Part shown: positions 4,081 through 61,017 of the stretch, one piece after another
Numbering within the stretch: the first letter of the stretch is position 1
How the letters are laid out: every line of letters starts with the position of its first letter
IMG/VR virus record: IMGVR_UViG_2643221929_000003
Span: 7,225-71,224 of that record
DNA from: a virus
Lineage: Duplodnaviria > Caudoviricetes
Strand: one strand, 5' to 3'
DNA length: 64,000 bases
Position numbers and translations under genes: made by a program
Notes under the pieces: model-generated
The model's input: only the letters and a program-made list of their open reading frames with translations
What the model was told of the DNA's origin: nothing
Database searches by the model: none

Positions 4081-4149
4081 GGTACGGATCGTACCGCGGG
4101 CCGGGGCGGCAGAACTACCAGGCTCATCTTCAACGGTACGTCTCGTACC
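4081..4149. promoter_or_regulatory. Tandem pair of motif A operators upstream of major capsid gene
   Basis: GGTACG-GAT-CGTACC (4081-4095) and GGTACG-TCT-CGTACC (4135-4149). Confidence 0.75.
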
Positions 4150-4177
4150 ACCAACAGACCCCCGAGGAGTACGGGAC

Positions 4178-5386
4178 ATGGATCTCAAGCCGCTCACCCA
4201 GCTCACCGCCAACCGGAAGGCGCCCGAGGGGCTGCTCGCCGCGCTGGCCGTGCGGGACAACAAGCGCGCGTCGGCCGACGCCGGCCTGCAGCTCGTCAAC
4301 GAGGCCCGCTCCTACGGCCTGGAGATGCGCGACTTCCTGCGCCTCGCCGTCGACCCGATGGCCGCCGAGAAGCCCGAGCTGTACGAGGGCCTGAACGGCT
4401 ACGAGGCCGCGCTGAAGTTCCTCAACCTGCCGGTCGGCAACGACTACGACAGCGGTGTGGTCCTCGACCTCGCCTCCGACACCTTCGAGTACAGCCCCGG
4501 CACCCGTGCGCTGTTCCCCGAGGTGGTCGACGACGTCGTGCGCTTCGCCTCACGCCAGGTCGACTACGAGAACCTGGAGAGCCTGATCGCCTCCACGCGG
4601 ACGATCAACGGCGTCGAGATGATCTCGACCGTCGTGAACGACGAGAACCCCGAGGACTACAAGGTCTTCGGCCCGGTCTCCGAGTTCGGCCGGTTCCGCA
4701 TCGGCAGCATCAAGACCAGCGAGACGCGGGTCAAGATGTGGAAGATCGGTGGCGGCTACCGCACCTCCTACGAGTTCCAGCGCCGCTCGCGCCTGGATCT
4801 GCTCACCCCGTATGCCAACCGCATGCAGCGTGAGCTGAACCTCTCGAAGGTCGGGCTCGCCACGGACCTGCTGATCAACGGCGACACGGTCAACGTGCCG
4901 GCCAACGTCGTGCCGCAGTCGTCCTTCGACAACCTGCACGGCGCGGGCGTCGCGGAGAAGGGGCGGATCGCCTACAAGAACCTCCTCCAGTGGTTCGTGG
5001 CGCGGGCCAAGGCCGGTGTGCCCATCGACACCGTCGTCGGCAACTGGGACGCCTACCTCGACTGGCTGTTCCTGTTCGCGCTGCCCACCGCGAACGCCAC
5101 GACCCGCACCGACGCCGAGAACCTCGCGGCGACCGGCTTCCGCATCGGCGGCGTGCCGATCCTGAACGGCCAGATCAACTTCGTGCTCTCGACCACGATG
5201 CCGGCCGGCCAGCTCCTCGGCTTCCGCAAGGGCGAGACCCTGGAGCAGCTGATCGAGGCGGGGTCGCTGATCTCGGAGAGCGAGCGCGCTGTCCAGACGC
5301 AGTCGATCACGTACGTGAAGTCCGAGGTCTCGGGCTTCCGGCTGGTCTTCGGCGACACCCGCGAGATCTACGACTACACCAAGTAG
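4178..5386 (+). CDS. Major capsid protein
   Basis: ~402 aa from ATG 4178 with GAGGAG RBS; strongly biased codons; position and size typical of an HK97-fold capsid protein. Confidence 0.8.
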   Translation: MDLKPLTQLTANRKAPEGLLAALAVRDNKRASADAGLQLVNEARSYGLEMRDFLRLAVDPMAAEKPELYEGLNGYEAALKFLNLPVGNDYDSGVVLDLASDTFEYSPGTRALFPEVVDDVVRFASRQVDYENLESLIASTRTINGVEMISTVVNDENPEDYKVFGPVSEFGRFRIGSIKTSETRVKMWKIGGGYRTSYEFQRRSRLDLLTPYANRMQRELNLSKVGLATDLLINGDTVNVPANVVPQSSFDNLHGAGVAEKGRIAYKNLLQWFVARAKAGVPIDTVVGNWDAYLDWLFLFALPTANATTRTDAENLAATGFRIGGVPILNGQINFVLSTTMPAGQLLGFRKGETLEQLIEAGSLISESERAVQTQSITYVKSEVSGFRLVFGDTREIYDYTK

Positions 5387-5401
5387 TCGGCCGATCCCGC
5401 C

Positions 5402-5425
5402 GGCCCCCGGGAAAACCCGGGGGCC
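5402..5425 (+). terminator. GC-rich hairpin after capsid gene (terminator or mRNA stabiliser)
   Basis: GGCCCCCGGG-AAAA-CCCGGGGGCC, no U-tract. Confidence 0.5.
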
Positions 5426-5449
5426 ACCTGACGCCGGAGCCCGAACACC

Positions 5450-5797
5450 ATGAAGATCCTGGTCTCTACGACCGGCGCGTTCCAGCTCGTGCATTCCGAG
5501 CAGCACGAACACATCCGCGCGACCGGCGATACCGTCATCGAGAAGTCCCAGTGGGCGCAGGAGAAGGTCTCGATTGGCCAGCTCCTCGTTTCGGCGCAGC
5601 TCAACGACGAGGCCTCCGATGCTGAGTGGCTCAAGACGCTCGAAGAGAGCGACGGCGACCGCGACCTGGCCCTGGCCAGCTTCCTCGACCGCTTCCCGGT
5701 CGACGAGGAGAGCGCCCGCCGGCCCGAGCCCGCACCGAAGCCGCAGACCACCGCCCAGGTCACGCACAACCGCCGGGGCGCCCCGCACAAGAAGTAG
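5450..5797 (+). CDS. Hypothetical virion-associated protein
   Basis: 115 aa ORF with phage codon bias after capsid. Confidence 0.65.
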   Translation: MKILVSTTGAFQLVHSEQHEHIRATGDTVIEKSQWAQEKVSIGQLLVSAQLNDEASDAEWLKTLEESDGDRDLALASFLDRFPVDEESARRPEPAPKPQTTAQVTHNRRGAPHKK

Positions 5798-5806
5798 GGT
5801 TGAGCT

Positions 5807-7962: not shown

Positions 7963-8392
7963 GATCGCTCGCAACTCGACTGTCCGCATGATCGTGGATG
8001 CGATCCGCGACATGCCCGGCGAGCCCCAGTATTACGAGTTCGACGCGCACGCCGAGGCGACCGAGCTGCCGAACGCGGACCTGATCGGCCTGGTGGCCTT
8101 CTCCTGCACGGAGAACGACCAGTTCCACGACCTGTCGTTCGGCGTCGTGGTGATGACGGTCCAGGACCCGGGCCTGACCCGCTCGACCGACTACGTGGAC
8201 GCCTTCTACCGCCGGCTCCAGGCGCGCTCGAAGTGGCCGATGTTCAACGACGATGGCTCCCCCACCGGGTTCGAGGCCGTGGCCTTCGACGGCGTGGCGG
8301 CCTCGCCGATGGGCCGGGTCGACATGCGCCCGACCGTCGAGCTGGTGGTCACGGCGCGGGTGACGCAGGCTGGTCAGTGGTCTCCTCAGTGA
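7955..8392 (+). CDS. Tail terminator (putative)
   Basis: 145 aa, last neck gene before the major tail protein. Confidence 0.5.
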   Translation: MYKIARNSTVRMIVDAIRDMPGEPQYYEFDAHAEATELPNADLIGLVAFSCTENDQFHDLSFGVVVMTVQDPGLTRSTDYVDAFYRRLQARSKWPMFNDDGSPTGFEAVAFDGVAASPMGRVDMRPTVELVVTARVTQAGQWSPQ

Positions 8393-8597
8393 ACTCGACG
8401 CCCGCCTTGTAGAGGAGGTGCATCGTCTCCCGCACGTTCTCGCTCGCGCAGCCAAGCGCGGTCTCGATCAGGTAGACGACCTCCTTCGTCACCGAGCGGT
8501 GGTTCTGCTCGGCGCGGTGCTTCAGGATCTCGTGCAGGTCGGGCTTCACCATCACGGTTATCGGCTTCTCGCCCGAGGTCTTGTATTCGCGCGGCAT
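8349..8597 (-). CDS. Arc/Mnt-like ribbon-helix-helix DNA-binding protein
   Basis: MPREYKTSGEKPITVMVKPDLHEILKHRAEQNHRSVTKEVVYLIE matches the Arc pattern (RSxxxE); divergent from the tail gene. Confidence 0.8.
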   Translation of the reverse strand: MPREYKTSGEKPITVMVKPDLHEILKHRAEQNHRSVTKEVVYLIETALGCASENVRETMHLLYKAGVEFTEETTDQPASPAP

Positions 8598-8612: not shown

Positions 8613-8631
8613 TCCCCTAATTTTTAGGGGA
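8613..8631. promoter_or_regulatory. Motif B palindrome TCCCCTAA-TTT-TTAGGGGA between Arc-like gene and major tail gene
   Basis: Perfect arms, 15 bp upstream of the Arc-like ATG. Confidence 0.75.
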
Positions 8632-9579: not shown

Positions 9580-10002
9580 ATGCCGTCCGAGGATAAGAAG
9601 CCAGAAGCCCGCATCACGCTCGATGTTGCTGGTACGCAACGTACTATCTTCATGAGCTTCGGGCTGCTGAACGAGATCGCGGCCCTTGTGCAGAGCCCCG
9701 AGAACGTCCCCGAGCTGAGCTTCAACTCGACCGTGTCGACGGCCGCCCTGCACCTGATGCTGGCTCCCCGCGACAAGCGCGGCAACATCCTGCCCGAGAA
9801 TGAGGACGAGCCGGCCGTGCCGCTCGATCTCGACCTCGACACCGCGGAGAAGCTGCTCGACTGGGCTGGCGAGCACGTCCTGGATTTTTTCGTCCGCCGC
9901 CTCGCGAAGTCCGCGACACTCTTCGCGACGAGGGCGGACAAGCTAGCGGCAGCCGGATCATCTCTGACTTCTTCGGCGAGCTTACCTGGGAAGACAGCCT
10001 GA
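9580..10002 (+). CDS. Tail assembly chaperone (gpG-like)
   Basis: ATG 9580 (MPSEDKKPEARITL...), between tail tube and tape measure; contains slippery T-TTT-TTC at 9885-9891. Confidence 0.75.
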   Translation: MPSEDKKPEARITLDVAGTQRTIFMSFGLLNEIAALVQSPENVPELSFNSTVSTAALHLMLAPRDKRGNILPENEDEPAVPLDLDLDTAEKLLDWAGEHVLDFFVRRLAKSATLFATRADKLAAAGSSLTSSASLPGKTA

Positions 10003-46657: not shown

Positions 46658-46690
46658 GTCAGTCAGGGCGGCGTCAGCCGCCGGTCGGGC

Positions 46691-47383: not shown

Positions 47384-47426
47384 GTGAAATTCCTAACTTC
47401 GATTGCGTTGCGGACTGGAACTTGCC

Positions 47427-47530: not shown

Positions 47531-47533
47531 AAG

Positions 47534-48940: not shown

Positions 48941-48971
48941 GCTACAACCCTCGGTAGCTAGGGAGTGAATA

Positions 48972-49337: not shown

Positions 49338-49367
49338 TGCTCTAGCTTGGAGACAGCTTGGTCCGGC

Positions 49368-49757: not shown

Positions 49758-50338
49758 GGCTGCCTCCTCATGAAGTGGTAGAGCTGGCGCCGGCCCTCGG
49801 CCGCCCAGTCGTGGTCCCAGTCGAGCCCGTCAGGGTTCAGGGTGATCGCGCCCGGCAGCCGGATCGGTCCGCAGAGGATCAGGTTGCGGGTGCGTGGGAG
49901 CTGCGCGAGCGTCTCCAGGTCGACGTAGTCGGACGGCTCGATGTCGATGAAGCACTGCGGCGCGGCGTTCGTGAGCGTCAGCAGCTGCGCGGCGCGCCGG
50001 GCGCGTGGGCGCTTCACGAAGCCGAACGGCTCGACGACGCGCTGGGCGCCGCCGATCATCGCCGACAGGCGCCACAGCCAGCGCACGTCGGCCGGGCGGA
50101 CGTGATAGAGCCCGCCGGTCTGGGCCGGGCTCATGGTCCGCACGAACGAGTGCGCCAGCGCGGGGCCCGCCTCGGGCTCCCCGAACTTGTGAGGGCAGGG
50201 GAGCCACCAGCGGTTCTCGACCTCGAACGGGCTATCGAGCCCGGCGAGGCGAGGCATGAGGCACCGGCCTCCGTCCTGCTCGTGCAGGAAGACGAAGTTG
50301 TCGTGTCGGTGCAGGCCGTAGCCCGGTGCCCGGATCAT
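49754..50338 (-). CDS. Hypothetical protein
   Basis: MIRAPGYGLHRH..., ATGA overlaps on both sides. Confidence 0.55.
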   Translation of the reverse strand: MIRAPGYGLHRHDNFVFLHEQDGGRCLMPRLAGLDSPFEVENRWWLPCPHKFGEPEAGPALAHSFVRTMSPAQTGGLYHVRPADVRWLWRLSAMIGGAQRVVEPFGFVKRPRARRAAQLLTLTNAAPQCFIDIEPSDYVDLETLAQLPRTRNLILCGPIRLPGAITLNPDGLDWDHDWAAEGRRQLYHFMRRQP

Positions 50339-50553
50339 CCGACTTCCTGCTGGTTCGAGGTGGACGGCTGCAGCCGGCGGGCGAGGAACAGCCCGAGGCA
50401 GCGGCGGGTGAGGGGATCGACCCGCATGCGCTCGCCGGTCGCCGGATCGGCCATGGTGCTGAGCCGGCCGGTCAGGTCGGCCGCGCGGTGGGCGAGCGGC
50501 AGCTTGTGGTGGATGCGCAGCAGGTTGAAGAACGGCTTGGTGTGCAAGATCAT
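50335..50553 (-). CDS. Hypothetical protein
   Basis: 72 aa, overlaps neighbours. Confidence 0.5.
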   Translation of the reverse strand: MILHTKPFFNLLRIHHKLPLAHRAADLTGRLSTMADPATGERMRVDPLTRRCLGLFLARRLQPSTSNQQEVG

Positions 50554-51011
50554 TCGGGGAGTGCTCCGAAACTCGGCGGTGTGAGAAGTTCTTCCACATT
50601 CATGTCCACGATATCGGCTATGGCGCTGACCTCTGAGACTGTGAAGTCATGGTATCCCTGCTCCATCGCGGCGAGAACGACGCGATTAGCGAACTTGTAG
50701 CGGTCGCTGAACTGACCGTGTGTGAGACTTTCGGCGAGGCGAGCAGCCAGAAGCTTGCGGCCGATGCGGATATGCACGGGCCCCAGCACCTCGCGCTGCT
50801 GGAACTTCTTGTGGTAGGTCGCGCGCTGCTGCGGCCGGCCCGCTCGGGCCTTGTCCCGCTGCAGGCGCTGCTCTGGGCTCAGCGCGGAGTTGGCCGTGCC
50901 GTAGTAGGTGCGGACGCTGGTCGGCTTCAGGTTCGGCAGCGCCTCCTGGACCTCCTTGAGGGACAGGCCCTCAAGAATGAGGGCCTGCACCTTGGCGATG
51001 CTGGGCGTCAT
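50550..51011 (-). CDS. XRE-like HTH transcription regulator
   Basis: IGRKLLAARLAESLTHGQFS...LAAMEQGYHDFTVSEVSAIADIVDMNVEELL XRE pattern plus an N-terminal HTH-like segment. Confidence 0.7.
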   Translation of the reverse strand: MTPSIAKVQALILEGLSLKEVQEALPNLKPTSVRTYYGTANSALSPEQRLQRDKARAGRPQQRATYHKKFQQREVLGPVHIRIGRKLLAARLAESLTHGQFSDRYKFANRVVLAAMEQGYHDFTVSEVSAIADIVDMNVEELLTPPSFGALPE

Positions 51012-51679
51012 GACTGGGCGAGCCTCCGGTCGATCATGCGCTTGCGCGTGCCGTGGGCCGGGAAGCCGACGATTACCCCTCGGGGTCGGGCGCGAGAGCA
51101 GAGGTTGCAGGTCGAGCAGGTCACCCGCTCGGCGTAGGTGGCCGGGCAGACCGCGATCTCGCGGCCGGCCGGTGTGCGGTGGCGGCCTCGACCGGCGTCG
51201 GACGGCAGGACCGTCACGACGCTCATGTCCGGTGCCTCGTCGAGCAGGCGGTCGGCCTCGGCCGCGCTGTCGGTGGAGCAGTTGACGTGGAAGCCCAACT
51301 TCCTGGCCTGACGGTACGTTTCGTACTGTCGGCCATGGGTAAAGACAATCGCCTCGCGACCGCCGTTGGCCCGAGCTAGCTTGAGCACGTCGTCGTGGGC
51401 CGGCGGCAGGTCGCCGGCCGTGCCGTAGCGCCAGCGGATCTTCTTCGGCAGGGCGCGGATCAGGTGGCAGAGCTGGTCGAGCGTGACCTGATTGACGGCG
51501 GTGCCGGCGGTCAGGTTGCGCCAGAAGATCGAGCCGGGCCCGTGCTCGGCGTAGCAGCCGGCGCCGCGGAGGCCGCAGGAGGCGGGGCAGGTCGCGGCGG
51601 AAGCCATCACGGCGGGCATCGGTCCGAGCTTGCGGTTCTGGGAGGCACGGCGGAAGTGGAAGAACATGGTGATCCTCAT
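51008..51679 (-). CDS. Cys-rich gp88/DUF7227-like protein
   Basis: NRKLG...TCPASC...CYA...RYGTAGD...FTH...CPA...CSTCNLC; motif A at 51688-51702 upstream and 51313-51327 inside. Confidence 0.65.
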   Translation of the reverse strand: MRITMFFHFRRASQNRKLGPMPAVMASAATCPASCGLRGAGCYAEHGPGSIFWRNLTAGTAVNQVTLDQLCHLIRALPKKIRWRYGTAGDLPPAHDDVLKLARANGGREAIVFTHGRQYETYRQARKLGFHVNCSTDSAAEADRLLDEAPDMSVVTVLPSDAGRGRHRTPAGREIAVCPATYAERVTCSTCNLCSRARPRGVIVGFPAHGTRKRMIDRRLAQS

Positions 51680-51720
51680 GGGCTGGCGGTACGTTTCGGA
51701 CCGCGGGTGGTGGACATGCG

Positions 51721-52020
51721 TCAGGCGGCGATATCGAGCGGCTGGCATGCCGCGAGGTGGACGTCCTCACGGCCGCGGGCCTTCAGCGTGACTGCGCCCT
51801 CGGTCATGATGGCGATGGTAGCCCCGCACGGCATGACGGGCTCACCGTTGCCGTTCAGGAGCTGCGACGGGCCGTGGAAGATGACCTCGTCGTAGTAGTA
51901 GGGCTGGCCATGCTTGCCGCGGGTGACCCGGACCGCGGGCTGGCGCTGGTCAGCGGGAAGCTTGCGATTTGCGGCAATAATGTGCCGGTTCATAACAATG
52001 TAGATCGGAGCATTTTTCAT
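51721..52020 (-). CDS. Hypothetical phage protein
   Basis: 99 aa, NRHIIAANRK...EVIFHGPS...PCGA. Confidence 0.6.
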   Translation of the reverse strand: MKNAPIYIVMNRHIIAANRKLPADQRQPAVRVTRGKHGQPYYYDEVIFHGPSQLLNGNGEPVMPCGATIAIMTEGAVTLKARGREDVHLAACQPLDIAA

Positions 52021-52072
52021 CTGTCGTCTCCCGCCAATTTCAGTCCTATAGGTCCTTTCACCTAAACTAGAG

Positions 52073-52507
52073 GTGATTGAACTGATGGATCACGTTGAGC
52101 TTATTAAGCAGCTTGTCATCTATTTCGATAAAATAGATAAGTTGTTAGCATTCCTGGCCTTTGTCCTTCTAGTAGCTGGCGCCGATTTCAAGCTTGAGCT
52201 GAAAAATATTTCGATCAATTTTGATCGTCGGCAAATCATCTATTTTAGGACTGCTGGCATATGTCTTCTCTTATTGTCCATGCTTCCCTCTTTGCTCGCA
52301 ATTTTATTTAAGCCAGTTGATCTAAAAGATTTAGTCGAGTTAAAGGCAATTATTGATAACACGCAAGGTATGACAGATAGAGGTCTTAACGGCAGCAGCG
52401 AGGGCGAGCATTGCTTTTACGCAACTAAAGAAATGCCGTATGCGCACGGGTCTAATCTCGCAGCCCAGACAAAAATCAACAGCATGATCAAAGCACTTCG
52501 CCCTTGA
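52073..52507 (+). CDS. AT-rich moron: two-TM membrane protein
   Basis: 144 aa, two hydrophobic segments, antisense, low GC. Confidence 0.6.
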   Translation: MIELMDHVELIKQLVIYFDKIDKLLAFLAFVLLVAGADFKLELKNISINFDRRQIIYFRTAGICLLLLSMLPSLLAILFKPVDLKDLVELKAIIDNTQGMTDRGLNGSSEGEHCFYATKEMPYAHGSNLAAQTKINSMIKALRP

Positions 52508-52510
52508 CGT

Positions 52511-52906
52511 TCAAATCTCTTTGAAGCGCGGCGGTACCATCTCGTCCGGGAAGCGGACGAAGGTGCCGTGCTCGTTGCGGTAGACGGTGACGGGCTGGCC
52601 ATCGTGGATGGCCCGGGTGTTGGCGCGGCCCATCTCCTCGGTCTTGTAGGAGACCTGGAACAGCGCCTTCTCGGCGATCACGTCGTAGGTGCGGCCGTTC
52701 TTGAAGTGCCGGACCTGGCGCTCGGCCTGGCCGGCGTTGATCGCCGCCGCGATGCGCTCGGCGAACGCCGTCATCTCCTCGGGCGTCCGCGCCTGCGTGG
52801 CGTTCATCAGCCCGAGCATGCCGACGACGGCGCCGGCCTCGTTGTGCAGCGTGATGCTGGAGCCCACGACGGAGCTGAAGGCGACCGCCTGTGCGGTGAT
52901 CCTCAT
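52511..52906 (-). CDS. Hypothetical protein with DUF1653-like C-terminus
   Basis: RHFKNGRTYDVI...VTVYRNEHG.FVRF..EM...RF pattern. Confidence 0.6.
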   Translation of the reverse strand: MRITAQAVAFSSVVGSSITLHNEAGAVVGMLGLMNATQARTPEEMTAFAERIAAAINAGQAERQVRHFKNGRTYDVIAEKALFQVSYKTEEMGRANTRAIHDGQPVTVYRNEHGTFVRFPDEMVPPRFKEI

Positions 52907-52980
52907 CAAACTTCTCCCAAGCTTGGCTGTTTCGGAGTGCTAGTACGAGCACCCCGCCCAGAGGCGGGGTGCGGTGCCGG

Positions 52981-54486
52981 TCAGTCGCGGACGATGCGCT
53001 TGACGTAGCGGTTCAGGACGCCCTGCAGGCCGTCGTGCTCGGTCTGGACGATCAGGCGGAACTCGGCGCCCTCGTCGACCTGGGCGACCTCGTAGATGCC
53101 GGCCGGCGGCCAGCCGCCGTCCACGGTCTCGATGCGGTCGCCGACCTTGGCTTCGAGTGCCGGGGCCTCGGGCTCGACCGGGAACTCGACCTGCTCGGCG
53201 ACGGTGCGCGGCCACAGCCGCTCACCGCGGACGGTCACGGCCACGATGGCGCGGTTGATCACCGCCACGCCGCCATCGACATCGCGCAGCTCGACCCGCC
53301 AGAACCAGCTGTCGGTGTCGATCTGGTTGTGGTCGTCATCCTCGGAGTAGCCGACCACGGTGTAGTCGCCGTCCTTGATGACGGGGTCGTTCTCGACCCG
53401 GATCTGCGCACCCTCGCAGACCAGAGCGGCGGCCGTGATCTCGTGGTCCTTCAGCACCCGGTTGATCCGATCCGGCTCGATCAGGTCGCCATCGAGGCCG
53501 CGGACTTGGTCCGCGTCGCCCACGACGCCGTAGAGGACGGCATCGAACTCGACGTACTCGACCACCGTGCCGGGCTGATGGATGACGGCGTCTTCGTCGT
53601 CCTCCTCGGGCAGCAGCTCGATCTGGTTCTCGTCCTCCTCCTCGACGGTGTCGTCGACACCCTCGTCCTGATCGACCTCGTCGAGGGTGGCGTCGTTCGG
53701 CGCCGGCATCTGCGAGCGGGGCGTGAGGACCGGGCGGCCGAGGATGGTGGCCGCGTACTCCTCGTCCAGCTCGTCGATCACCTCGTAGGCGCAGATCCGC
53801 ATCTTGGTGCCGTCGTAGGAGTAGGGCACGGAGACGACGTCGTGCGGCCACACGGCGATCAGCATCCCCCGGCGGCCATCGGCGCCGAGGCCGAAGTCCT
53901 TCACGTAGTCGGGCGTGCCGACATGCAGGCCGGTCGAGCAGCAGGCGTTCGGGTCGGAGTTGACCCGGTCGCGCGGCATGTGCGGCGTGTCGCCGATCAT
54001 GTTGCGGAACGAGTTGCCGGTGTGGATGTCCATGTAGTCGCCGCGCACGGCCTTGTAGGCGACGAACCGGCCGTCCTCCAGGAAGCCGAGCTGCGACTTC
54101 TCCAAGAACACCGGCAGGCGCTCGATGGCGGCCTGCGTCGGGTTCTGCACGAGCGACCCGAGCGCGTTCCAGAGCGGGGCGAAGGGCTCGCCGGCCTTCT
54201 GGAACTCCAGGATGCGCTCGACCCAGAGGCCGGTGAGCACCTGGCCCTTGAACACGATGTCCTGGCCGATGAACGTGATGGCGCCGAAGCTGTCGCGCAG
54301 CAGCGCCTTGCGGACGTCGACCAGCGCCATCAGGTGCTCGGCGTCGTGCTCGCCCGGGGCGAGCAGGAGCTGCTTGGCCTCGGCGTAGCGCTCGTGCTCG
54401 CGGGTCAGCGAGTACGGCTTGCCCTTCACGAAGAAGGTCAGCGACTGGTTCGAGATGGTGTAGGGAAGACGAACAGCGTTGGTCAT
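52981..54486 (-). CDS. rIIB: RIIB-like protein
   Basis: DGRFVAYKAV, MPRDRV..DP...CSTGLHV, DVVSVP..Y...KMRICAYEV motifs; acidic C-terminal extension. Confidence 0.8.
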   Translation of the reverse strand: MTNAVRLPYTISNQSLTFFVKGKPYSLTREHERYAEAKQLLLAPGEHDAEHLMALVDVRKALLRDSFGAITFIGQDIVFKGQVLTGLWVERILEFQKAGEPFAPLWNALGSLVQNPTQAAIERLPVFLEKSQLGFLEDGRFVAYKAVRGDYMDIHTGNSFRNMIGDTPHMPRDRVNSDPNACCSTGLHVGTPDYVKDFGLGADGRRGMLIAVWPHDVVSVPYSYDGTKMRICAYEVIDELDEEYAATILGRPVLTPRSQMPAPNDATLDEVDQDEGVDDTVEEEDENQIELLPEEDDEDAVIHQPGTVVEYVEFDAVLYGVVGDADQVRGLDGDLIEPDRINRVLKDHEITAAALVCEGAQIRVENDPVIKDGDYTVVGYSEDDDHNQIDTDSWFWRVELRDVDGGVAVINRAIVAVTVRGERLWPRTVAEQVEFPVEPEAPALEAKVGDRIETVDGGWPPAGIYEVAQVDEGAEFRLIVQTEHDGLQGVLNRYVKRIVRD

Positions 54487-54576
54487 GATCATATCCAATA
54501 TGGCTGGCCGTTGGTACGAAACGGACGATGTATTGCAGGCGCACTGACCCCGTAGGATCAGTGCGTTGGCGGACGA

Positions 54577-56688
54577 CTACTTGTTGATGAGACTAAAGTA
54601 GTGGTCGAACTTACGCTGCACGTCGCCGTCGCACTTGGTGTAGTGGTACTGGAACAGTGCGTTCAGCAGGGTGACGAACAGCGGATACTTGGCCGTGAAC
54701 TCCTTCCAGGCGGTCTTGACGCCCTGGGTCGGGTCCTTGGCGACCGACTTGAGGTCGGTGCCGGTCAGGGAGAGGAGCACGGCCGCGAGGCGGTCGTGAT
54801 CATTGTCGTCGCGCTCCAGCATGTCCCGCTCGCGGTTGAGCCGGCGCATCTCGTTGATCATCTCCTTCAGCTCCGGCGGGGCCAGGCCGAGGTCGATCTC
54901 CTTGTCGACCGTGCGGCGCAGGGCCTCCGGGAAGCTGGCGTAGGACCACGGGATGGTCGGTGCGACCTGGGTCGGGTCGATGGCGGCGTCGAGCAGCTCG
55001 ACCAGGTGGTCGCCGAGCGAGATCCAGTGGTCGAGCGGCTGCTCGTCCTCGTTGACGACGACACAGGTCATGTCGCCGCCGATCTGGTCGATCAGGCTGT
55101 TCTTCCGCATCGCGTGCAGGATGCCGCGCAGGTTGGTGCTGTAGCGGTCTGTGAACTCATGCACCTCGCCGTCGACGGTGAGGATGTGCGTGAGCTTCTT
55201 CCCTCGGCCCTTGATGCGGAGGTACAGCAGCTCGTCGTCGTGATCGACGAACTCCGACCAGGTCTCCAGGGTCTGCAGGTTGACGACCTTGCGACGCTTG
55301 ACGCTCTCCGGCCGCTTCTCCCTCGGACCGCGGGTGCTCTTCGGCAGCTTGATGTCGTCGAGCAGCACGTAGTCGGGGTTGCCCATCCGCGCCAGAGCGA
55401 AGGCCAGGTCGGCACGCTTGCAGCGGACCCAGAGCAGCTTCTCCTCGGTGAGGCCGGCCGCCTCCAGGCGCTCGACGGAGCGGCTGGTGTTGTGCTGGAT
55501 CACGACCTTGCGGTCCTGCAGCTCGCCCGGGTTGATCTCCCAGTCGGCCTTGAACGTGACCGGCACGCCGTTGCGGGTCCGGTCGCGCAGCTCCGGCCAC
55601 CGGACGGCCTTGACCGGGCCGCTGCCGGGGAACAGCTGGTCGAAGAAGCCGAACCCACGCCAGCCGATCTCGCGGACGACGTGCCACTGCCGACCCGGCA
55701 GGGTGTCGGCGATGTCCATGGCCTTCCAGCGGGCATCGAAGTAGGTCCGGCAGGCATCGACCTGGGCACGGGCGTTGCGCATCCAGTCGATCCGGTAGGC
55801 CTCGAACAGGGCCTCCAGCCCGGACTGGGTGCGGTCGTCGTACTGCAGGTTCTCACGCGAGGCAGACACCGAGATGGTGCCGATCTTCGCCTCGAACACG
55901 ATGCAGGTCTCGTGGTCGAGCATGTTGGTGTCGGGCATGTTGTAGGGGTCGATGGGGTACATGACCGGCCCGAGCATGACCTGCGGCCCCTCGAACGGCA
56001 CCGTGCCCTTGCGGTAGACGGTCCAGCCGTCGCCCTTGTTAAGCACCTTCGGCTCGCCGAAGTCGATGGCCGGCGAGATGACCGGACGCGGGTGGAACGA
56101 CCACAGCACGGCCTTGGCGTGCTCGTGGAAGCGGCCGATGTCGGCCTCGCGGACCGGGAAGGAGATCTCCAGGCCGGTGCCGCGATCCTCGGGCTCAAGC
56201 ACCCACTCGCCCAGGAACGAGATCTGGATCTTGCCGGCCTCGGACACGCCGATGGAGTAGACGCGCCGGAACCCGCGGAAGCGGGAGATGACGGTGAAGG
56301 CGCCGGCGCCGTCCGAGCGCATCAGGTAGGCGAGCGCGGCCTTCGAGCCGAAGCCCCAGCCGCCCACGGCGTCGTCGTCGCCGTCCTTGGTGCTTTCGCC
56401 GATCTTGGCGTACTTGTTCATCATGAACGAGTGCGGCAGGCCCGGCCCGAAGTCACGGATGGTGTACTGCGGGTTGAACCGCGTGGGCAGCTCGATCTCG
56501 AAGGGCTTTTTGGGCGGCGAAACCTCCCAAGCATTGGTCGCGTACTCGCGGACCGGGTAGACGATCTTGTCGGAAACCATGCCGGTGAGCAGAGCGTAGA
56601 CGATCTTCGCGTCACCGCCGACGCCGGTCTGCTTGACCTGCTGCGCGCCTTCGCCAACGGTCTCGTTGAGAGCATGAACCATACGCAT
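54577..56688 (-). CDS. rIIA: RIIA-like protein (GHKL/HATPase N-terminus)
   Basis: SDKI..PVREYATNA, IRDFGPGL, ESTK, GGWGFGSKA, SRENLQYD; adjacent to rIIB. Confidence 0.8.
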   Translation of the reverse strand: MRMVHALNETVGEGAQQVKQTGVGGDAKIVYALLTGMVSDKIVYPVREYATNAWEVSPPKKPFEIELPTRFNPQYTIRDFGPGLPHSFMMNKYAKIGESTKDGDDDAVGGWGFGSKAALAYLMRSDGAGAFTVISRFRGFRRVYSIGVSEAGKIQISFLGEWVLEPEDRGTGLEISFPVREADIGRFHEHAKAVLWSFHPRPVISPAIDFGEPKVLNKGDGWTVYRKGTVPFEGPQVMLGPVMYPIDPYNMPDTNMLDHETCIVFEAKIGTISVSASRENLQYDDRTQSGLEALFEAYRIDWMRNARAQVDACRTYFDARWKAMDIADTLPGRQWHVVREIGWRGFGFFDQLFPGSGPVKAVRWPELRDRTRNGVPVTFKADWEINPGELQDRKVVIQHNTSRSVERLEAAGLTEEKLLWVRCKRADLAFALARMGNPDYVLLDDIKLPKSTRGPREKRPESVKRRKVVNLQTLETWSEFVDHDDELLYLRIKGRGKKLTHILTVDGEVHEFTDRYSTNLRGILHAMRKNSLIDQIGGDMTCVVVNEDEQPLDHWISLGDHLVELLDAAIDPTQVAPTIPWSYASFPEALRRTVDKEIDLGLAPPELKEMINEMRRLNRERDMLERDDNDHDRLAAVLLSLTGTDLKSVAKDPTQGVKTAWKEFTAKYPLFVTLLNALFQYHYTKCDGDVQRKFDHYFSLINK

Positions 56689-56712
56689 TGGAGTTCTCCT
56701 GAGAGGCTGAAC

Positions 56713-56727
56713 GGTACGTTTCGTACC
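56713..56727. promoter_or_regulatory. Motif A operator GGTACG-TTT-CGTACC upstream of rIIA
   Basis: Perfect palindrome in the intergenic region; another copy at 54513-54527 upstream of rIIB. Confidence 0.75.
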
Positions 56728-56784
56728 GTGTGGGGTCAACAAAAATCAGTCTAATGTCGTCGATTTATTGGGGCACGTACGCCC

Positions 56785-57024
56785 CTATACTTGGCAAAGC
56801 TCCGCACGCCGGGCTTTCAGCTCCCGGATTGCTTGCTGGCGGTGGAAGTAGGCGAGCCGAAGATTGCGAGGCGCGTCCGGTGTGTTGGCGCTCTGCTCCT
56901 TCAGCTCTTCCAGATTGCGCTTGAGCCGGGTCAGGTAGGCGTCGCACTCGTCCAGCGTGCCGACATCGGCGGCCGTCTTCGTGCGAGCCTGGTCGATCCA
57001 GCTCGGTGCGTTCGACTTACCCAA
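56785..57024 (-). CDS. Hypothetical protein
   Basis: Coiled-coil-like small ORF; start uncertain. Confidence 0.45.
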   Translation of the reverse strand: MGKSNAPSWIDQARTKTAADVGTLDECDAYLTRLKRNLEELKEQSANTPDAPRNLRLAYFHRQQAIRELKARRAELCQV

Positions 57025-57670
57025 GACCCTCCCCCTCGCGGTAGGTGATCGAGAAGACCGCACGCACGCCCTGCAGGCTGGCGCGGGCCTCCTCCTCGGT
57101 GTCGAAGATGTACCAGTTCAGGCCGCGCTCCGCAGCAAACTCCTTGCCGCCGACGACCTGCTTGCCGGCCTCGTTGAGCTTGCGGTCGTAGACCCGCACC
57201 CACTTCGTGATCGGCGGGTTCACCTCGAACACGTCGCCCGGGTGATCGCCCTGGCTGGCCGGGTGGAGGCCAGCCTTGGTGCGCAGGCCGGCCGCGGTGC
57301 CGCCATCCGGCAGGGTGATGCGGACGCCGACCGGGAACTCGCCCGGATCGTTGAAGGAGACGATCTCCACCGGCAGGCCCTCGCGGGTCCGATACTCGCG
57401 GCCCGGCCTTAGGGTCCGGGCGACGAATGTGGTGTCCTCGGGCCGGCGGGCGATCAGGTTCTCGCCCTTAGCGCCGTCGAGCGCCGTGTCGACGGTCGTG
57501 ACCTTGCCGGTCTGCCGGTCCTCGACCGAGAAGATGGTCGCGGTCGAGCCCTGGCTCTGGATCTCGCTCGCAAAGGCGGCGGCCTCCTCGGGCGACGAGG
57601 CGGCCGTCTCGATGGCCCAGTCGACGCGGAAGAGCTTCAGGCCGGCCGCGAGTGGGGTGTGCATGTTCAT
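57017..57670 (-). CDS. Hypothetical protein
   Basis: 217 aa with AGAGGA RBS; YRTREG phage motif. Confidence 0.65.
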   Translation of the reverse strand: MNMHTPLAAGLKLFRVDWAIETAASSPEEAAAFASEIQSQGSTATIFSVEDRQTGKVTTVDTALDGAKGENLIARRPEDTTFVARTLRPGREYRTREGLPVEIVSFNDPGEFPVGVRITLPDGGTAAGLRTKAGLHPASQGDHPGDVFEVNPPITKWVRVYDRKLNEAGKQVVGGKEFAAERGLNWYIFDTEEEARASLQGVRAVFSITYREGEGLG

Positions 57671-57681
57671 GGCGTGTCCTC

Positions 57682-57924
57682 TCAGTCGGTGCCGTCGCGG
57701 ACGGCGATGAGCGCCGCGATCACGGCGTCGAGGTTGCGGAAGGGGATGGAGAGGCGGGCGGCGCCGGAGCGCCGGCCACGCGAGACGAGGCCGACGAGGT
57801 GCGTCTCGCCGCCGAAGACCTCGACGGCGATGCCGTGGGCCTGCATCGTCCCGTTGCGGCCGAAGTGGCCGGTGCGGGTCTGCTCGTCGAAGTGAATGGC
57901 TTGGTGATGCGGCCGAGCCGCCAT
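57682..57924 (-). CDS. Hypothetical protein
   Basis: 80 aa with GAGGAGG RBS; motif A (57952-57966) and motif C (57971-57985) upstream. Confidence 0.65.
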   Translation of the reverse strand: MAARPHHQAIHFDEQTRTGHFGRNGTMQAHGIAVEVFGGETHLVGLVSRGRRSGAARLSIPFRNLDAVIAALIAVRDGTD

Positions 57925-58007
57925 GTCGTCCTCCTCAAGGGCTGAGGCGACGGTCCGTTTCGGACCGTCGCCATATTGGATATGCCTGCTATCTCAGGGA
58001 CTTACGG

Positions 58008-58214
58008 CTAGACGCCGTAGTAGGTGGCCAGCAGGTCGAGGCCGTAGGCGTTGAGGGCGAAGAACACGGCGATCAGGCCGAGCGCGCCCCAGACCCTGGT
58101 GCCAGGCTCACCGTCCGTCCCGAAGGCCAGACCGGCGATGCCGAGCAGCAGGAACAGGTTGGCCATCAGCCACGCGGCGCAGCGGAGGACCAGGATCGTG
58201 GTGGTGAGGCTCAC
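58008..58214 (-). CDS. Small two-TM membrane protein
   Basis: 68 aa, hydrophobic. Confidence 0.55.
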   Translation of the reverse strand: MSLTTTILVLRCAAWLMANLFLLLGIAGLAFGTDGEPGTRVWGALGLIAVFFALNAYGLDLLATYYGV

Positions 58215-58666
58215 GCGGCCTCGACCTTCTTCTTGCGCGGCGCGCGCTTCGGCTTCGGCGCGGCCTCGATGCGGGCGGCGGCGGCTTCGATCTGCGCACG
58301 GGTCGGGTAGTTGGCGAACCGGGCGATCACGCTCGGGTGCTGGTGGAGGTGCGCGCCCTGCCGGCGGCGGCGCTCGGCGGGGCGGGAGCCGGCGATGTCG
58401 CAGCCGGCGTGGCCGGTGGAGGAGTAGCGGCGCCGGGTCACGCGGATCTTGTGATCGACGTCGGCCTGGGTCGGGACGCGGTGCATGCGCTTACGCAGCT
58501 CGCCGGCCTCGTAGAACGAATAGAGCAGGGTGCCGGCGACCGAGTAGGTGCATGGGCCGCTGCTCTCGCCCTTCTTCCGGCGGGGCTTCTGGGACACGGG
58601 CATGGGTGCTCTCCGAGCTTTCGCGCGCTTCATGCGCAGGGCGGTGATGGGGTTGAGAGCGGTCAT
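58211..58666 (-). CDS. Basic hypothetical protein
   Basis: ATGA overlap; Arg/Lys-rich. Confidence 0.55.
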   Translation of the reverse strand: MTALNPITALRMKRAKARRAPMPVSQKPRRKKGESSGPCTYSVAGTLLYSFYEAGELRKRMHRVPTQADVDHKIRVTRRRYSSTGHAGCDIAGSRPAERRRRQGAHLHQHPSVIARFANYPTRAQIEAAAARIEAAPKPKRAPRKKKVEAA

Positions 58667-58962
58667 GCCGGGCAGTTCTCGATGCACCGGCGGGCGACCG
58701 CGGCCGACACCTCGCGCCCGGTCAGCCCGAGCGCGGGGATCCCGCTGTAGACGGCGTCGATCAGGCCGACGCCGACCTGGTCCGGGTACAGCTCCGCGAA
58801 GGCGTCGCTGGCCCGTTCCATCATGACCAGCTCCAGCTCCTCGAAGCCGTGCTTGGTCGGACGCTCCTCGCCGATCTCGGCCATGAGCGTCGTGAAGAAG
58901 GAGTGGTTGCCCTCGGCGAGCCCGGCCTGGGCCGCCGTCAGGATCTCGTGGTGGCTGCGCAT
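58663..58962 (-). CDS. Hypothetical protein
   Basis: MRSHHEIL...; motif A (58963-58977) abuts the ATG. Confidence 0.55.
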   Translation of the reverse strand: MRSHHEILTAAQAGLAEGNHSFFTTLMAEIGEERPTKHGFEELELVMMERASDAFAELYPDQVGVGLIDAVYSGIPALGLTGREVSAAVARRCIENCPA

Positions 58963-58978
58963 GGTACGAAACGGACCA

Positions 58979-59176
58979 TCAGTTGCGGACAAGCGTCAGC
59001 GTCGGGCGCTCCTTCCGCGGGGGAGGGGGCGCTGACCGCGACGGTTGCGGGGGCTGCAGATACCGGGCGATCTTCGCCTCCCGCTTCTCCAGCAGGACGA
59101 CGAGGCCCAGAACGAAGAGCGCCACGGCCATCGGGCCGAAGAGCATGGTGAGGAACGTCGCGGTCAGCTGGCTCAT
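58979..59176 (-). CDS. Small membrane protein
   Basis: MSQLTATFLTMLFGPMAVALFVLGLVVLL... Confidence 0.5.
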   Translation of the reverse strand: MSQLTATFLTMLFGPMAVALFVLGLVVLLEKREAKIARYLQPPQPSRSAPPPPRKERPTLTLVRN

Positions 59177-59361
59177 CAGAGCTGCCGGGCGAACGCGCGG
59201 AAGGCGAGGAACGAGCGGTCCTGCGGGTCGGAGTGCGGATCGCGCTCGCGCGGATCCACGCTGGTTGGCGGAGCCCGGCGCGTGCCGGCGTCTCTCGGGC
59301 GGAACGGCCGGCTGACACCGTTGCGGATGACGGTGCCGTCGTCGGTAATGATCTGGCGCAT
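59176..59361 (-). CDS. Hypothetical protein, first gene of leftward early operon
   Basis: MRQIITDDG..., AGGA RBS. Confidence 0.45.
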   Translation of the reverse strand: MRQIITDDGTVIRNGVSRPFRPRDAGTRRAPPTSVDPRERDPHSDPQDRSFLAFRAFARQL

Positions 59362-59380
59362 AACGATTTTCCTGGGTGTC

Positions 59381-59522
59381 GGTACGAACCGTACCGTAGG
59401 TTGCGGGCACACTGCCCGCCCCGGGGCAAGCTGTTCTTGCCACGGATCCCGATGGTACGTAAAGGACCGTCAGGCAAAAATCTGCTAGCAGATCGTTGAC
59501 CGTACACAGTCCGTTTCGTACC
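59381..59522. promoter_or_regulatory. Divergent control region with three motif A operators and palindrome ATCTGCTAGCAGAT
   Basis: Sites 59381-59395, 59454-59468, 59508-59522; palindrome 59480-59493. Confidence 0.75.
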
Positions 59523-59530
59523 GTGATCGT

Positions 59531-59740
59531 ATGTCAGACGCCGCTCCGAACCCACGCAACGTCATCCGCCTGCCAGACGTGGCGGCCGAGCTGGGCATCC
59601 ACCCGAACACGCTTCGGAAGATGTGCCATGCCGGGGAGGGGCCCCGGCTACTGCGCGTGTCGCCCCGCTGCTACGGCGTGCGCCGCGGGGACCTGGAACA
59701 GTGGCTAGAGAGCCGCGATGTGGCGGGCCCAAAGGTCTAG
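59531..59740 (+). CDS. AlpA/MerR-like excisionase (recombination directionality factor)
   Basis: IRLPDVAAELGIHPNTLRKM...GEGP...RRGDLEQWLESR. Confidence 0.8.
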   Translation: MSDAAPNPRNVIRLPDVAAELGIHPNTLRKMCHAGEGPRLLRVSPRCYGVRRGDLEQWLESRDVAGPKV

Positions 59741-60856
59741 GGCCTCGCGCTTCTCGGTGGCGTACGCGGCGCGGTTGTAGATCCCGGCGACGCCGGCCTT
59801 CGAGCCTGAGACGTGGTTCAGGATCGCCTCGACGACGTGCGGCGGGACCTTGAGCACGTCCGCCATCATGGTCGCCGCGGTGCGGCGCAGATCGTGCAGT
59901 CGCCAGTCGCTGATCCCCGAGCGCTTGTCGAGCGCGGCCTTCGCCTTGCTGAAGCCGGAGAACGGCCCGGAGCCGGTGCCGAACATCAGGTCCCGGTCCT
60001 CGATCACCGGCCGCCGCGCGATGACGGCGAGCGCCTCGGCCGAGAGCGGCACGTCGTGCGGGTTGCCGTTCTTGGTGCGCTCACCCGGCATGCTCCACAG
60101 CGCGCCGGCCTGATCGACCTCGCTCCAGAGCATGGCCGCGACCTCCTCGCGCCGCTGCCCGGTCAGGATCAGCAGGCGCACGATGTCGGCGAAGTCGTTG
60201 GCCCCGTTGCTATGGGTGGCCTTCCAGATCGCGGCCAGCTCGGCCGGCTTCAGGACGCGGTCCCGCTTCTTCTCCGAAGCGGGCTTCTCGGTGCCGGTCA
60301 CGATGTTGTGATCGGCGGCGTCGGTGGCCACCAGCCATCCATAGAAGCGCGACAAGGCGGCCTGCGCCCGGTTGGCGGTCGTAGCGCCGTTGTCGCGCTT
60401 GATCTCCTGCAGCACCCGGTGGACCTCGGACCGGGTCAGTTCGCGGACCGGCACCTTGTGCAGCGGCTCGAACAGCTGCGTCAGGTAGCGCTTCATGTTC
60501 TTGAACCAGGCCTCGCTGACCTGGCTCTCGCGCTCGGCCAGGTAAGGCTCGACGAGGGAGCCGAGCGTCGGCGCCTGGCGCGCCTTCTTGATCTGGGCGC
60601 GCGGATCCTCACCGGACCGGACCCGGATGATGCGGTCGCTGGCGAGCTTCCGCGCCTCGGAGGCGGACAGCATGGGGAACTTGCCCAGCGTCTCGCGCCG
60701 GCTCTCGCCGGCCTGCGTCCGGTACTGGACGAAGAACTGCTTCACCTTCGCGCTGACGCGGACACCGTAGCCCTTCACCTCGTCGTCGTAGACCATCAGC
60801 CGGTCCTTGCCCGGCGGCAGTTCGAGGGCGGCGACGGAGGTGTTGGTGAGGCGCAT
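59705..60856 (-). CDS. int: Tyrosine recombinase/integrase with arm-binding domain
   Basis: Arm domain (YDDEVKGYGVRV...TLGKFP), LILTGQRREE, TKNG, HDLRRT, LNH, Y motifs. Confidence 0.95.
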   Translation of the reverse strand: MRLTNTSVAALELPPGKDRLMVYDDEVKGYGVRVSAKVKQFFVQYRTQAGESRRETLGKFPMLSASEARKLASDRIIRVRSGEDPRAQIKKARQAPTLGSLVEPYLAERESQVSEAWFKNMKRYLTQLFEPLHKVPVRELTRSEVHRVLQEIKRDNGATTANRAQAALSRFYGWLVATDAADHNIVTGTEKPASEKKRDRVLKPAELAAIWKATHSNGANDFADIVRLLILTGQRREEVAAMLWSEVDQAGALWSMPGERTKNGNPHDVPLSAEALAVIARRPVIEDRDLMFGTGSGPFSGFSKAKAALDKRSGISDWRLHDLRRTAATMMADVLKVPPHVVEAILNHVSGSKAGVAGIYNRAAYATEKREALDLWARHIAAL

Positions 60857-61017
60857 CCGGTACTCTCTGGGTACTCCGTCGGTCCGATCCGAACCGGCCG
60901 TTTCCGCGACGAAGTCACCGGGTACTATGCCCGAACGCCACTTTTCAAGAGCGAAACAGGCCGGGTGCCAAAAACTGGGTACTCAGGAGTGCGTCCGAAA
61001 GGTACGGTCCCATGAGC

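Follow-up and report, generated by a model that had tools for sequence, protein, structure and literature searches.

Motif A, a dispersed dyad-symmetric repeat at gene starts in Seuss-like temperate phages of Methylobacterium and Methylorubrum, as a putative genome-wide operator

To our knowledge, the control of a whole phage genome through a single dispersed motif is well worked out solely for the Cluster A mycobacteriophages. The Streptomyces phage phiC31, an actinophage, carries conserved inverted repeats (CIRs), palindromes of about 17 bp that occur in many copies near early promoters and are bound by the phage repressor, an unrelated large protein with several isoforms. The C proteins of restriction-modification systems are small XRE-type dimers that bind two short inverted half sites about 3 bp apart and regulate their own expression. 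The dyad repeat of the Cluster O mycobacteriophages (the Corndog group) was described in 2015 and has reportedly been assigned no function since. This 17-bp repeat (5'-TGTTCGGNNNCCGAACA, i.e., TGTTCGG-N3-CCGAACA) is present in 34 copies in Corndog, has a spacer that is mostly AAA or TTT, and is not found in the host genome (PMC4351075). The stoperators of Cluster A (L5 gp71, Bxb1, TipsytheTRex) are 13-bp asymmetric sites, active in only one orientation relative to transcription and bound by a monomer with two domains (PMC9283540). Here we examine a window of 64,000 nucleotides (bases 7225-71224 of the 71,224-bp virus record IMGVR_UViG_2643221929_000003, referred to as G000), which carries a temperate siphophage with a palindromic 15-bp repeat, motif A, positioned mostly at gene starts.

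The core pattern of motif A is GGTMCG-N3-CGKACC, i.e., GGT(A/C)CG-N3-CG(T/G)ACC (Table 1). Twelve exact copies are present in the window, as compared to 0.02 expected from 100 shuffled sequences (largest shuffled count, 1), and 22 copies when one mismatch is allowed, against 1.38 expected (largest count, 4). The left 7.2 kb of the record holds three further exact copies, giving 25 copies at up to one mismatch in the whole 71-kb record. An earlier note on this DNA, made from the sequence alone, had listed 23 sites, of which 21 were recovered at this threshold; the copy at 30245 carries two mismatches, and at 60992 there is no copy, since the sequence has three mismatches and its two half sites are in direct order. 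An additional copy at 41624, which the note had called weaker, is present with two mismatches, and the site at 38845 was missing from the list. The spacer is AAA or TTT in 13 of the 22 window sites, in line with the earlier observation, and the dyad symmetry reaches 17 bp through the flanks: Y-GGT(A/C)CG-(A/T-rich N3)-CG(T/G)ACC-R. Immediately outside the site, G is rare (1/61 and 3/61) and C or T is favoured.

Using refined starts, 16 of the 22 window sites end 0-45 bp ahead of a start codon, which upholds the view that they lie mostly at gene starts. Nineteen sites are non-coding, including three intergenic ones beyond the start-proximal class (4081, 47516 and 59454), and three lie inside genes (38845, 39122 and 51313). 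Of four sites originally placed within coding sequence, two (39122 and 51313) are indeed intragenic, and the other two (9631 and 31886) abut starts. When start enrichment was assessed on our own automatic gene calls for the whole 71-kb record, 15 of the 23 core matches fell 0-60 bp upstream of a start, where 6.8% would be expected (binomial P = 8e-13). Sites stand ahead of both early and late genes, as well as xis and int, and the labels given previously to these genes (capsid, NlpC, resolvase, ribonucleotide reductase (RNR), rIIA, rIIB, xis and int) were all confirmed. No site is found in the flank past att, a flank of only about 3 kb.

Relatives of the phage were collected through their DNA polymerase (68-85% identity) and comprise four IMG/VR contigs (G003-G006), together with contigs of Methylobacterium jeotgali (G001) and Methylorubrum suomiense (G002). 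The closest isolated phages, including Caulobacter phage Seuss and Achromobacter phage JWF, are about 40% identical in the polymerase. Motif A sites occur at the same places before orthologous genes in five related phages, and the distance to the start codon is kept: 23-24 bp for rIIA, 26-30 bp for the capsid gene, 11-12 bp for NlpC and 0-3 bp for the resolvase. The positional conservation to which the earlier note had looked for support is thereby established. In alignments of the upstream regions of nine orthologous genes, the core stands out as the principal island of conservation besides the ribosome-binding site and the start codon.

One relative, G004, shows a concerted change of the outer bases, which are T..A in 16 of 26 sites (form TGTACG-N3-CGTACA), as against G..C in the others. 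This change extends into coding sequence. The intragenic site of the DUF7227 gene encodes x-Tyr-Glu/Asp-Thr-Tyr-Arg; in G004 the Arg codon on the right side is AGG and not CGN, a synonymous replacement, and on the other side the first codon is TTG, which changes Gln/Arg to Leu. Together, the two codons create the exact G004 form of the motif within DUF7227, which points to selection on the DNA, following a genome-specific reader. The sites co-evolve as a set.

As the earlier note had supposed, the array is carried by the phages and is not a host repeat. In the 4.5-Mb genome of M. jeotgali, 22 of the 26 exact copies are located on its three prophage contigs, and in the 5.5-Mb genome of M. suomiense, 16 of 18 are on a single 84-kb phage contig. 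The non-prophage copies in the two host genomes (4 and 2) compare with 4 and 5 for a reversed-pattern control, and their spacers are G/C-rich and in no case A/T-rich. The 13-bp core occurs 23 times in G000, 26 in G004, 24 in G006, 14 in G003, 28 in G002 contig 20 and 24 in the three G001 contigs. G005, a closely related fragment of 40 kb, has a single core copy and lacks sites at the same promoters. Among 2.9 million viral contigs, the commonest exact form was found in 46 stretches, of which only those from this phage group hold several core copies together; the remaining viral contigs contain single chance copies, and two contigs with extra weak cores (L071 and L079) share no proteins with it. 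The exact-form scan of genome contigs likewise gave only single chance copies among the matches listed. Among the sequences surveyed, motif A is confined to a single clade of temperate, Seuss-like siphophages from Methylobacterium and Methylorubrum. Literature searches on Methylobacterium prophage palindromes and on phage Seuss found no description of it.

Of the described systems, the Cluster O repeat comes closest. Motif A resembles that repeat in the length of its inverted arms (6-7 bp) and in its 3-bp spacer, mostly AAA or TTT. Both occur in tens of copies (34 in Corndog and 23-28 core copies here), many of them in short intergenic gaps or gene 5' ends with no clear orientation; in both, the host genome is without the repeat, relatives have positions in common, and there are indels between repeats. 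The Cluster O authors too propose dimeric regulators (PMC4351075). The sequence, the host phylum and the phage lineage all differ. About one third of the Corndog copies lie well inside genes, whereas here 19 of 22 are non-coding and 16 are within 45 bp before a start; a transcriptional role was thought unlikely by those authors (PMC4351075), and the concerted outer-base change in one relative is a feature seen here. As in Cluster A, one short site is repeated more than 20 times along the genome of a temperate phage, at promoters and in short gaps between genes (25 copies in the 71-kb record); there, one repressor silences both initiation and elongation, and sites and repressor co-evolve into immunity groups (PMC9283540). 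Unlike the asymmetric, orientation-dependent Cluster A site, motif A is palindromic and unoriented: both halves carry the same variant spectrum, and orientation does not follow transcription, the spacer oriented to the downstream gene being AAA in 28 cases and TTT in 18, with a mild bias in which half carries the C variant (CT 14 versus AG 5), the gene-proximal half being the better kept. The candidate regulator discussed below also has two DNA-binding domains, of other kinds than those of the Cluster A protein. We class motif A with the dispersed dyad-symmetric regulatory repeats of temperate phages; it does not belong to any homology family.

The pattern of variation within the sites bears on the nature of the reader. 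Among 139 sites, the combinations at positions 4 and 12 are AT (98), AG (17), CT (16) and CG (8). The mixed, non-pairing combinations thus number 33, compared to 40 expected if the halves were independent, and the compensated combination is found eight times. The halves vary independently, as they would in DNA recognized by a symmetric dimer but not in an RNA hairpin; the dimeric protein proposed in the earlier note fits this pattern. Where one half is perfect, the other half reads GTCCG 29 times and its mirror GGACG not once, which argues that each half is read by an asymmetric head, such as a helix-turn-helix (HTH) monomer; a symmetric unit with GTAC at its centre would not fit.

Promoter-like elements near the sites were read by eye. 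A conserved TGGACA-16-CTATCT pair lies 10-12 nt upstream of site 47427, which would therefore cover the first transcribed bases. The sequence before xis can be read as TTGACC-17-TACCGT-6-ATG, the site covering both the spacer and the -10, which suggests a leaderless transcript; the same TTGACC-17-TACCGT reading also fits rIIA in this phage and in G003. At the resolvase and at 58963 the site abuts the ATG, leaving no room for a ribosome-binding site, and the gap at the resolvase is 0-3 bp in all relatives. The sites at 46607 and before rIIB directly follow terminator-like hairpins. Three sites (59381, 59454 and 59508) are located between the leftward ATG at 59363 and the xis ATG at 59531, and site centres are 54 bp apart both in this region and in the capsid pair. 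This divergent three-site region looks like a switch region, and the earlier contention that dispersed sites act here "rather than a single lambda-type switch" is thus too strong.

This varied placement over core promoter and start regions looks like that of repressor operators and less like that of activator sites. Our preferred reading, to which we give a probability of roughly 0.5, is that motif A is an operator over -10/start regions which would exert negative control throughout the genome. That a protein binds the sites, which protein this is, and whether it represses are inferences. A phage homodimer would read motif A, with one asymmetric head per half site, and would occupy sites over or just after the -10/start of most units, i.e., early replication, rIIA/B, capsid, tail, xis and int. 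Several of these units appear to be leaderless or to have very short leaders, so that site occupancy would block initiation, and sites after terminators or inside genes might block elongation. The outcome would be one-factor negative control over nearly the whole genome.

The best candidate for the binder is the XRE-like product of gene 50550-51011, which the earlier note had already named among its candidates. The gene is co-transcribed with DUF7227 behind site 51688 and is located about 300 bp downstream of intragenic site 51313; being behind and downstream of two sites, it would regulate itself. Its membership in an HTH family is supported by homologues: its counterpart in Seuss, gp077, carries the annotation of a Cro/C1 regulator (31% identity, E = 4e-12), and of 43 aligned family members, 13 match HTH_3/HTH_31, three GerE and two Sigma70_r4_2. 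The family comprises 267 clusters at E <= 0.001 and 39 at E <= 1e-10, and since all 224 alignment columns span both domains, we read it as having two HTH domains. A profile search of the PDB matched the ICEBs1 Xre-family regulator (E = 0.006), with weak LuxR-type matches for the N-terminal part, and residues 77-150 can be aligned to HTH_31 clusters in Atlas models (TM about 0.4 by query). The restriction-modification C protein C.AhdI is a weak profile match (E = 1.2); C proteins differ in having one or two operators per system, no genome-wide array and no second HTH domain. Profile searches for distant homologues, including a metagenome scan, returned the known relatives and a metagenome relative, L228; one profile of the protein searched against viral contigs gave no match.

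Examination of the recognition helix, (S/A)NR..L..MEQGYHDF, shows that it is invariant or nearly so in five motif-bearing phages whose proteins are 41-49% identical overall. The helix differs in Seuss and in two further elements, G379 and G717, drawn from samples of 401 genomes of the order and 401 of the family; none of the three carries motif A. Only two columns, R49I and R59L in a basic linker, separate G004 from the other four phages. We consider the XRE-like protein a tentative choice as the binder, somewhat short of even odds. A bolder proposal, which we hold to be doubtful as a whole, is that this two-HTH protein silences an entire genome of 70-85 kb through some 25 palindromes which double as the -10/start elements of leaderless or short-leader promoters, and that the outer G->T switch together with R49I/R59L would mark a new immunity group.

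Several observations weigh against repression by this protein. An E. coli-type promoter scan of 44000-61500 yielded one match, versus 1.4 expected, and none near the sites. A TTG(Y)CC-like -35 element is found 9 bp upstream in about half of the gene-proximal sites of G000, and the better conservation of the gene-proximal half over the distal one would also fit a promoter element, a little. A repressor gene inside the repressed early operon is unusual for lysogeny maintenance. The XRE-like protein itself has no Pfam match, even at E = 1, and the four phages with G..C outer bases differ at one helix position (V/K/T/M). The helix of L228 starts in the same way (FSNRVRLSHMEQGFYDF), and L228 contains no motif A and no other abundant palindrome in 20 kb; in the G717 prophage, an XRE-like and an Arc-like homologue are both present and a dispersed palindrome is not.

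The other binders suggested in the earlier note fared less well. The product of gene 38756-39022, called a small HTH protein, has no HTH match, and it is not a general binder since it was not found by tblastn in G002 contig 20 or G004, both of which bear the motif. As for a gene left of the window, six genes were called in the left 7.2 kb, and none has a DNA-binding domain in Pfam. The xis-like HTH_17 protein was likewise dropped as a general binder, being not found in the same two motif-bearing relatives, and the small protein 25732-25911 (ribbon-helix-helix-like by eye, with no family match) also occurs in G005 and Seuss, both without the motif. A target of restriction-modification or methylation was dropped in view of the intergenic and start-proximal placement.

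It is conceivable, but in our estimation unlikely, that the palindrome forms part of a phage-specific promoter, at which a phage factor would recruit or redirect the host RNA polymerase and switch the units on. A sigma-70 region 4-like domain in the XRE-like protein could do so, and the family of this protein includes members that match Sigma70_r4 and GerE. The sites lie a short distance before nearly every start, where canonical promoters were undetected, the gene-proximal half is the better kept, and a TG(Y)CC element is found in an orientation-specific manner 10-14 bp upstream of the site (T in 35/61 and G in 41/61, versus 9 and 16 in the reverse orientation). The homologue in Seuss, a phage recorded with terminal repeats and with no integrase annotated, further indicates that the factor is not solely a lysogeny factor. 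These features have to be set against the distances from site to hexamer and from site to start, which vary (0-45 bp), and against the site at 47427, which is downstream of the -35/-10 pair, where activators do not act. In addition, the operon of the factor would itself need the factor, and a perfect dyad with an unoriented spacer is unusual in a promoter element.

A second DNA-binding protein, the Arc/Mnt-like ribbon-helix-helix (RHH) product of gene 8349-8597, is an improbable substitute for the XRE-like protein. It would act as a prophage repressor in the form of a dimer of dimers, with one dimer on each GTAC-centred half. The assignment is based on a Pfam Arc match of 20.5 bits (cut-off 20.4, E = 4e-4), an Arc-like phrog_3178 match (E = 5e-4) and an N-terminal beta strand followed by two helices that matches the Arc/MetJ ribbon-helix-helix; Mnt is the only PDB profile match and is weak (E = 0.85). 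It is the only other clear DNA-binding protein present in all five motif-bearing phages and was not found in Seuss by tblastn. Its antisense position in the late operon implies a promoter of its own, like that of lysogeny genes, G004 is set apart from the other four phages by four columns, including two immediately before the beta strand, and each half site does hold the 4-bp palindrome GTAC. A symmetric dimer on GTAC, though, would not predict the imbalance between GTCCG (29) and GGACG (0); the beta-strand residues vary among the motif A phages (ITVMV, ISVLV, LTVMV and VTVLV), the nearest motif A is more than about 900 bp from the gene, and the G717 prophage combines an Arc-like homologue with absence of the motif.

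Moreover, a different palindrome (TCCCCTAAAAATTAGGGGA) is located 17 bp before the ATG of the Arc-like gene. This third palindrome, CCCCTA-N5-TAGGGG, has three exact copies (2318-2334, 8614-8630 and 25675-25691) and six matches at up to two mismatches, compared to 1.2 expected; the copies lie before head gene 2350, between the Arc-like and major tail genes, and upstream of the lysis cassette. The sequence at these places is different in each relative, e.g., TTCCTAA..TTAGGAA and TCCCTGA..TCAGGGA. Given its distance of 17 bp from the Arc-like start, the third palindrome is probably the operator of that protein on the late operons.

Binding of the sites by a host transcription factor, which would wire the phage to a host signal, is very unlikely. 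Speaking for it, the phage with the outer-base variant has an XRE-like protein that a source names as from Methylobacterium aquaticum, a different host species. The two host genomes, though, contain only 4 and 2 non-prophage copies, not above the control and with no A/T-rich spacer; a host regulon of zero would be odd, and the related fragment G005 is without sites at the same promoters.

Still less probable is an RNA element, in which the palindrome would form a hairpin of 6-9 bp in the 5' leader and control translation, processing or stability. The sites adjoin ribosome-binding sites and start codons, and a palindrome of Seuss takes in the ribosome-binding site. Perfect copies fold well, with z-scores of -3.3 to -3.7 in three of the six copies tested; the other three fold no better than shuffles, and mixed sites fold weakly or not at all. 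The variable pair lacks covariation (33 mismatching versus 8 compensated combinations), the sites show no preference of strand or orientation, and copies are found in divergent promoter regions and before leaderless-looking starts. No match to the sites was obtained in Rfam. They are not followed by T runs, and the one adjacent terminator-like match (46657-46630) is a separate hairpin.

Finally, the repeats could be short homology patches serving mainly for the exchange of modules and morons, with no regulatory role. The ends of high-scoring segment pairs fall within 60 bp of a site in 5/32 (G003), 6/40 (G006), 4/42 (G002 contig 20) and 10/44 (G004) cases, versus about 1.2-1.7 expected for random positions, variable cassettes begin exactly at 18175, 37170 and 51688, and indels between repeats are reported for Cluster O (PMC4351075). 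We find this scarcely credible, since it leaves unexplained the dyad symmetry, the A/T spacer, the fixed start distances and the concerted outer-base change, and since sites and breakpoints are both intergenic while the control used random positions; the clustering is probably a side effect.

Table 1. Copies of motif A in the window and genes discussed in the text. Positions are those of the window.
Feature	Position	Strand	Context
Motif A, exact (GGTACGGATCGTACC)	4081-4095		Intergenic, 82 bp before capsid ATG 4178
Motif A, exact	4135-4149		28 bp before capsid ATG; same place in G003, G006, G002 contig 20 and G004
Motif A, 1 mismatch	9631-9645		6 bp before ATG 9652, tape-measure chaperone
Motif A, exact	18175-18189		11 bp before NlpC/P60 ATG 18201; 97 bp from divergent TIR-domain gene start
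Degenerate copy, 2 mismatches (TGGACGAAACGGACC)	30245-30259		20 bp before gene 30280-30498
Motif A, exact	31886-31900		9 bp before ATG 31876 (-), dATP/dGTP pyrophosphohydrolase
Motif A, exact	37170-37184		3 bp before resolvase ATG 37166 (-); no room for ribosome-binding site
Motif A, 1 mismatch (TGTCCGTCGCGTACC)	38845-38859		Inside small gene 38756-39022; 85 bp before ThyX start
Motif A, 1 mismatch	39122-39136		Within RNR gene 3' end; 99 bp before start 39022
Motif A, exact	41099-41113		17 bp before RNR start 41081; palindrome extended by flanks
Motif A, 1 mismatch	46607-46621		Directly after terminator-like hairpin 46657-46630; 11 bp before GTG 46595
Motif A, exact	47427-47441		43 bp before ATG 47383; 10-12 nt downstream of TGGACA-16-CTATCT
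Motif A, 1 mismatch	47516-47530		Intergenic, 3 bp past helicase stop
Motif A, 1 mismatch	51313-51327		Within DUF7227 gene, about 300 bp upstream of XRE-like gene; retained in G003, G006 and G004
Motif A, exact	51688-51702		8 bp before ATG 51679, DUF7227/XRE-like operon
Motif A, 1 mismatch	54513-54527		14-26 bp before rIIB start, after hairpin
Motif A, exact	56713-56727		24 bp before rIIA ATG; TTGACC-17-TACCGT spans site
Motif A, exact, both halves of GTCCG type	57952-57966		27 bp before ATG 57924; adjoins second palindrome CATATTGGATATG
Motif A, exact	58963-58977		Abuts ATG 58962 of gene 58663-58962
Motif A, exact	59381-59395		17 bp before ATG 59363, first leftward small gene; three-site region
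Motif A, 1 mismatch	59454-59468		Middle site, divergent control region
Motif A, 1 mismatch	59508-59522		8 bp before xis ATG 59531; three-site region
Motif A, 1 mismatch	60881-60895		24 bp before int ATG 60856
Best candidate binder, 153 aa	50550-51011	-	Predicted N-terminal GerE/sigma-70 region 4-like HTH and C-terminal XRE (Cro/C1) HTH
DUF7227 gene	51008-51679	-	Heads operon holding candidate binder 50550-51011
Arc/Mnt-like RHH protein	8349-8597	-	Antisense in late operon; rival candidate binder
TIR-domain gene	17241-18077	-	Low-GC insert between tail genes; CAP12/Pycsar-type, Pfam E = 2e-21
dATP/dGTP pyrophosphohydrolase	31505-31876	-	dGTP_diPhyd_N, phrog_801
xis-like HTH_17 gene	59531-59740	+	Right phage end
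Tyrosine integrase (int)	59705-60856	-	Right phage end

Based on gene calls by GC content at third codon positions (GC3) and on family scans, the gene order of the siphophage resembles that of Seuss. The plus strand codes for the large terminase, portal, major head protein, tape-measure chaperone, NlpC/P60, tail and lysis genes. The minus strand past 30.7 kb contains the dUTPase region, SbcCD-like, RecU-like resolvase, ThyX, class II RNR and ligase genes, together with those for DNA polymerase, 5'-3' exonuclease, helicase, DUF7227, rIIB and rIIA; a primase gene (Prim-Pol domain) is on the minus strand left of the window. No tRNA is present in the window. Beyond int are a Hint-domain gene and a Mutator transposase, which have a counterpart in no relative and are, for this reason, probably host flank. 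The leftward operon opens with two small conserved genes on the minus strand, 59181-59363 and about 58990-59180, which code for a 61-aa protein (ATG 59363) and a small membrane protein; the long, mechanically listed open reading frames across 58990-59363 are not the real genes.

Additional genes appear to be accessory. The TIR-domain protein matches the PADLOC TIR effector and PycTIR, and its gene is likely a defence moron; G003 has different DNA at this spot, with the break in homology exactly at motif A site 18175. Four genes of low GC or GC3 and without a family match are found between modules, namely 741-2107 (-), 37380-37835 (+), 48972-49337 (+) and 52073-52507 (+). They are missing from most relatives, two are replaced by other DNA in the contig of another strain, and all four are probable morons. 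The dATP/dGTP pyrophosphohydrolase is of a type found in phages with modified purines. One of the elements without motif A, in G379 (contig 6, about 835-860 kb; L099-L100), is a 25-kb island of 53% GC inside a chromosome of 63% GC. It includes int, DUF7227, rIIA/B, exonuclease, helicase and an XRE-like homologue, and structural genes were not found in it by tblastn with the proteins of this phage; it is either a satellite-like element or a remnant.

Other short repeats accompany motif A. A second palindrome, CCATATC-N-GATATGG (loosely CATAT-N3-ATATG), is found in the window at 25527, 35417, 54490 and 57972, and in relatives at 50.6-59.4 kb of G004 and 1.7-10.1 kb of G002 contig 20. The loose form has four copies here and 7-14 in relatives, clustered among small early genes, and often adjoins motif A or overlaps a start codon; there are none in G005 or Seuss. 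The word ACTAGCA(G) occurs at 18164, 25706, 37190, 47467 and 59482, shortly before motif A sites or a CCTATATC box. The copy at 25706 is part of ACTAGCA-N6-CCTATATC-N5-ATG ahead of the small gene 25732-25911, an arrangement that looks like a leaderless promoter of that gene. Seuss contains a 6-N3-6 palindrome of its own, TTTACCTNAGGTAAA, in seven exact copies, five of them unique (L035/L036; 717, 1515, 68938, 76122 and 82486), over the ribosome-binding sites of early genes including rIIA. Its geometry and its position at rIIA are like those of motif A; its sequence is not.

Motif A provides a simple sequence signature by which these prophages can be found and delimited in Methylobacterium genomes. 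It represents a second, independent case of a dyad-repeat array, in phages of Alphaproteobacteria, with a short list of candidate binders. Together, the natural specificity variant G004 and the array-free close relatives (G005, L228 and G717) make this a tractable system for the study of array function, of the co-evolution of operators and regulators into immunity groups, and of the control of leaderless phage promoters. If the proposal of whole-genome silencing by a two-HTH protein is true, the dyad repeats of Cluster O would be operator arrays of the same type, covering the whole genome, and the two would have independent origins in phages of two bacterial phyla.

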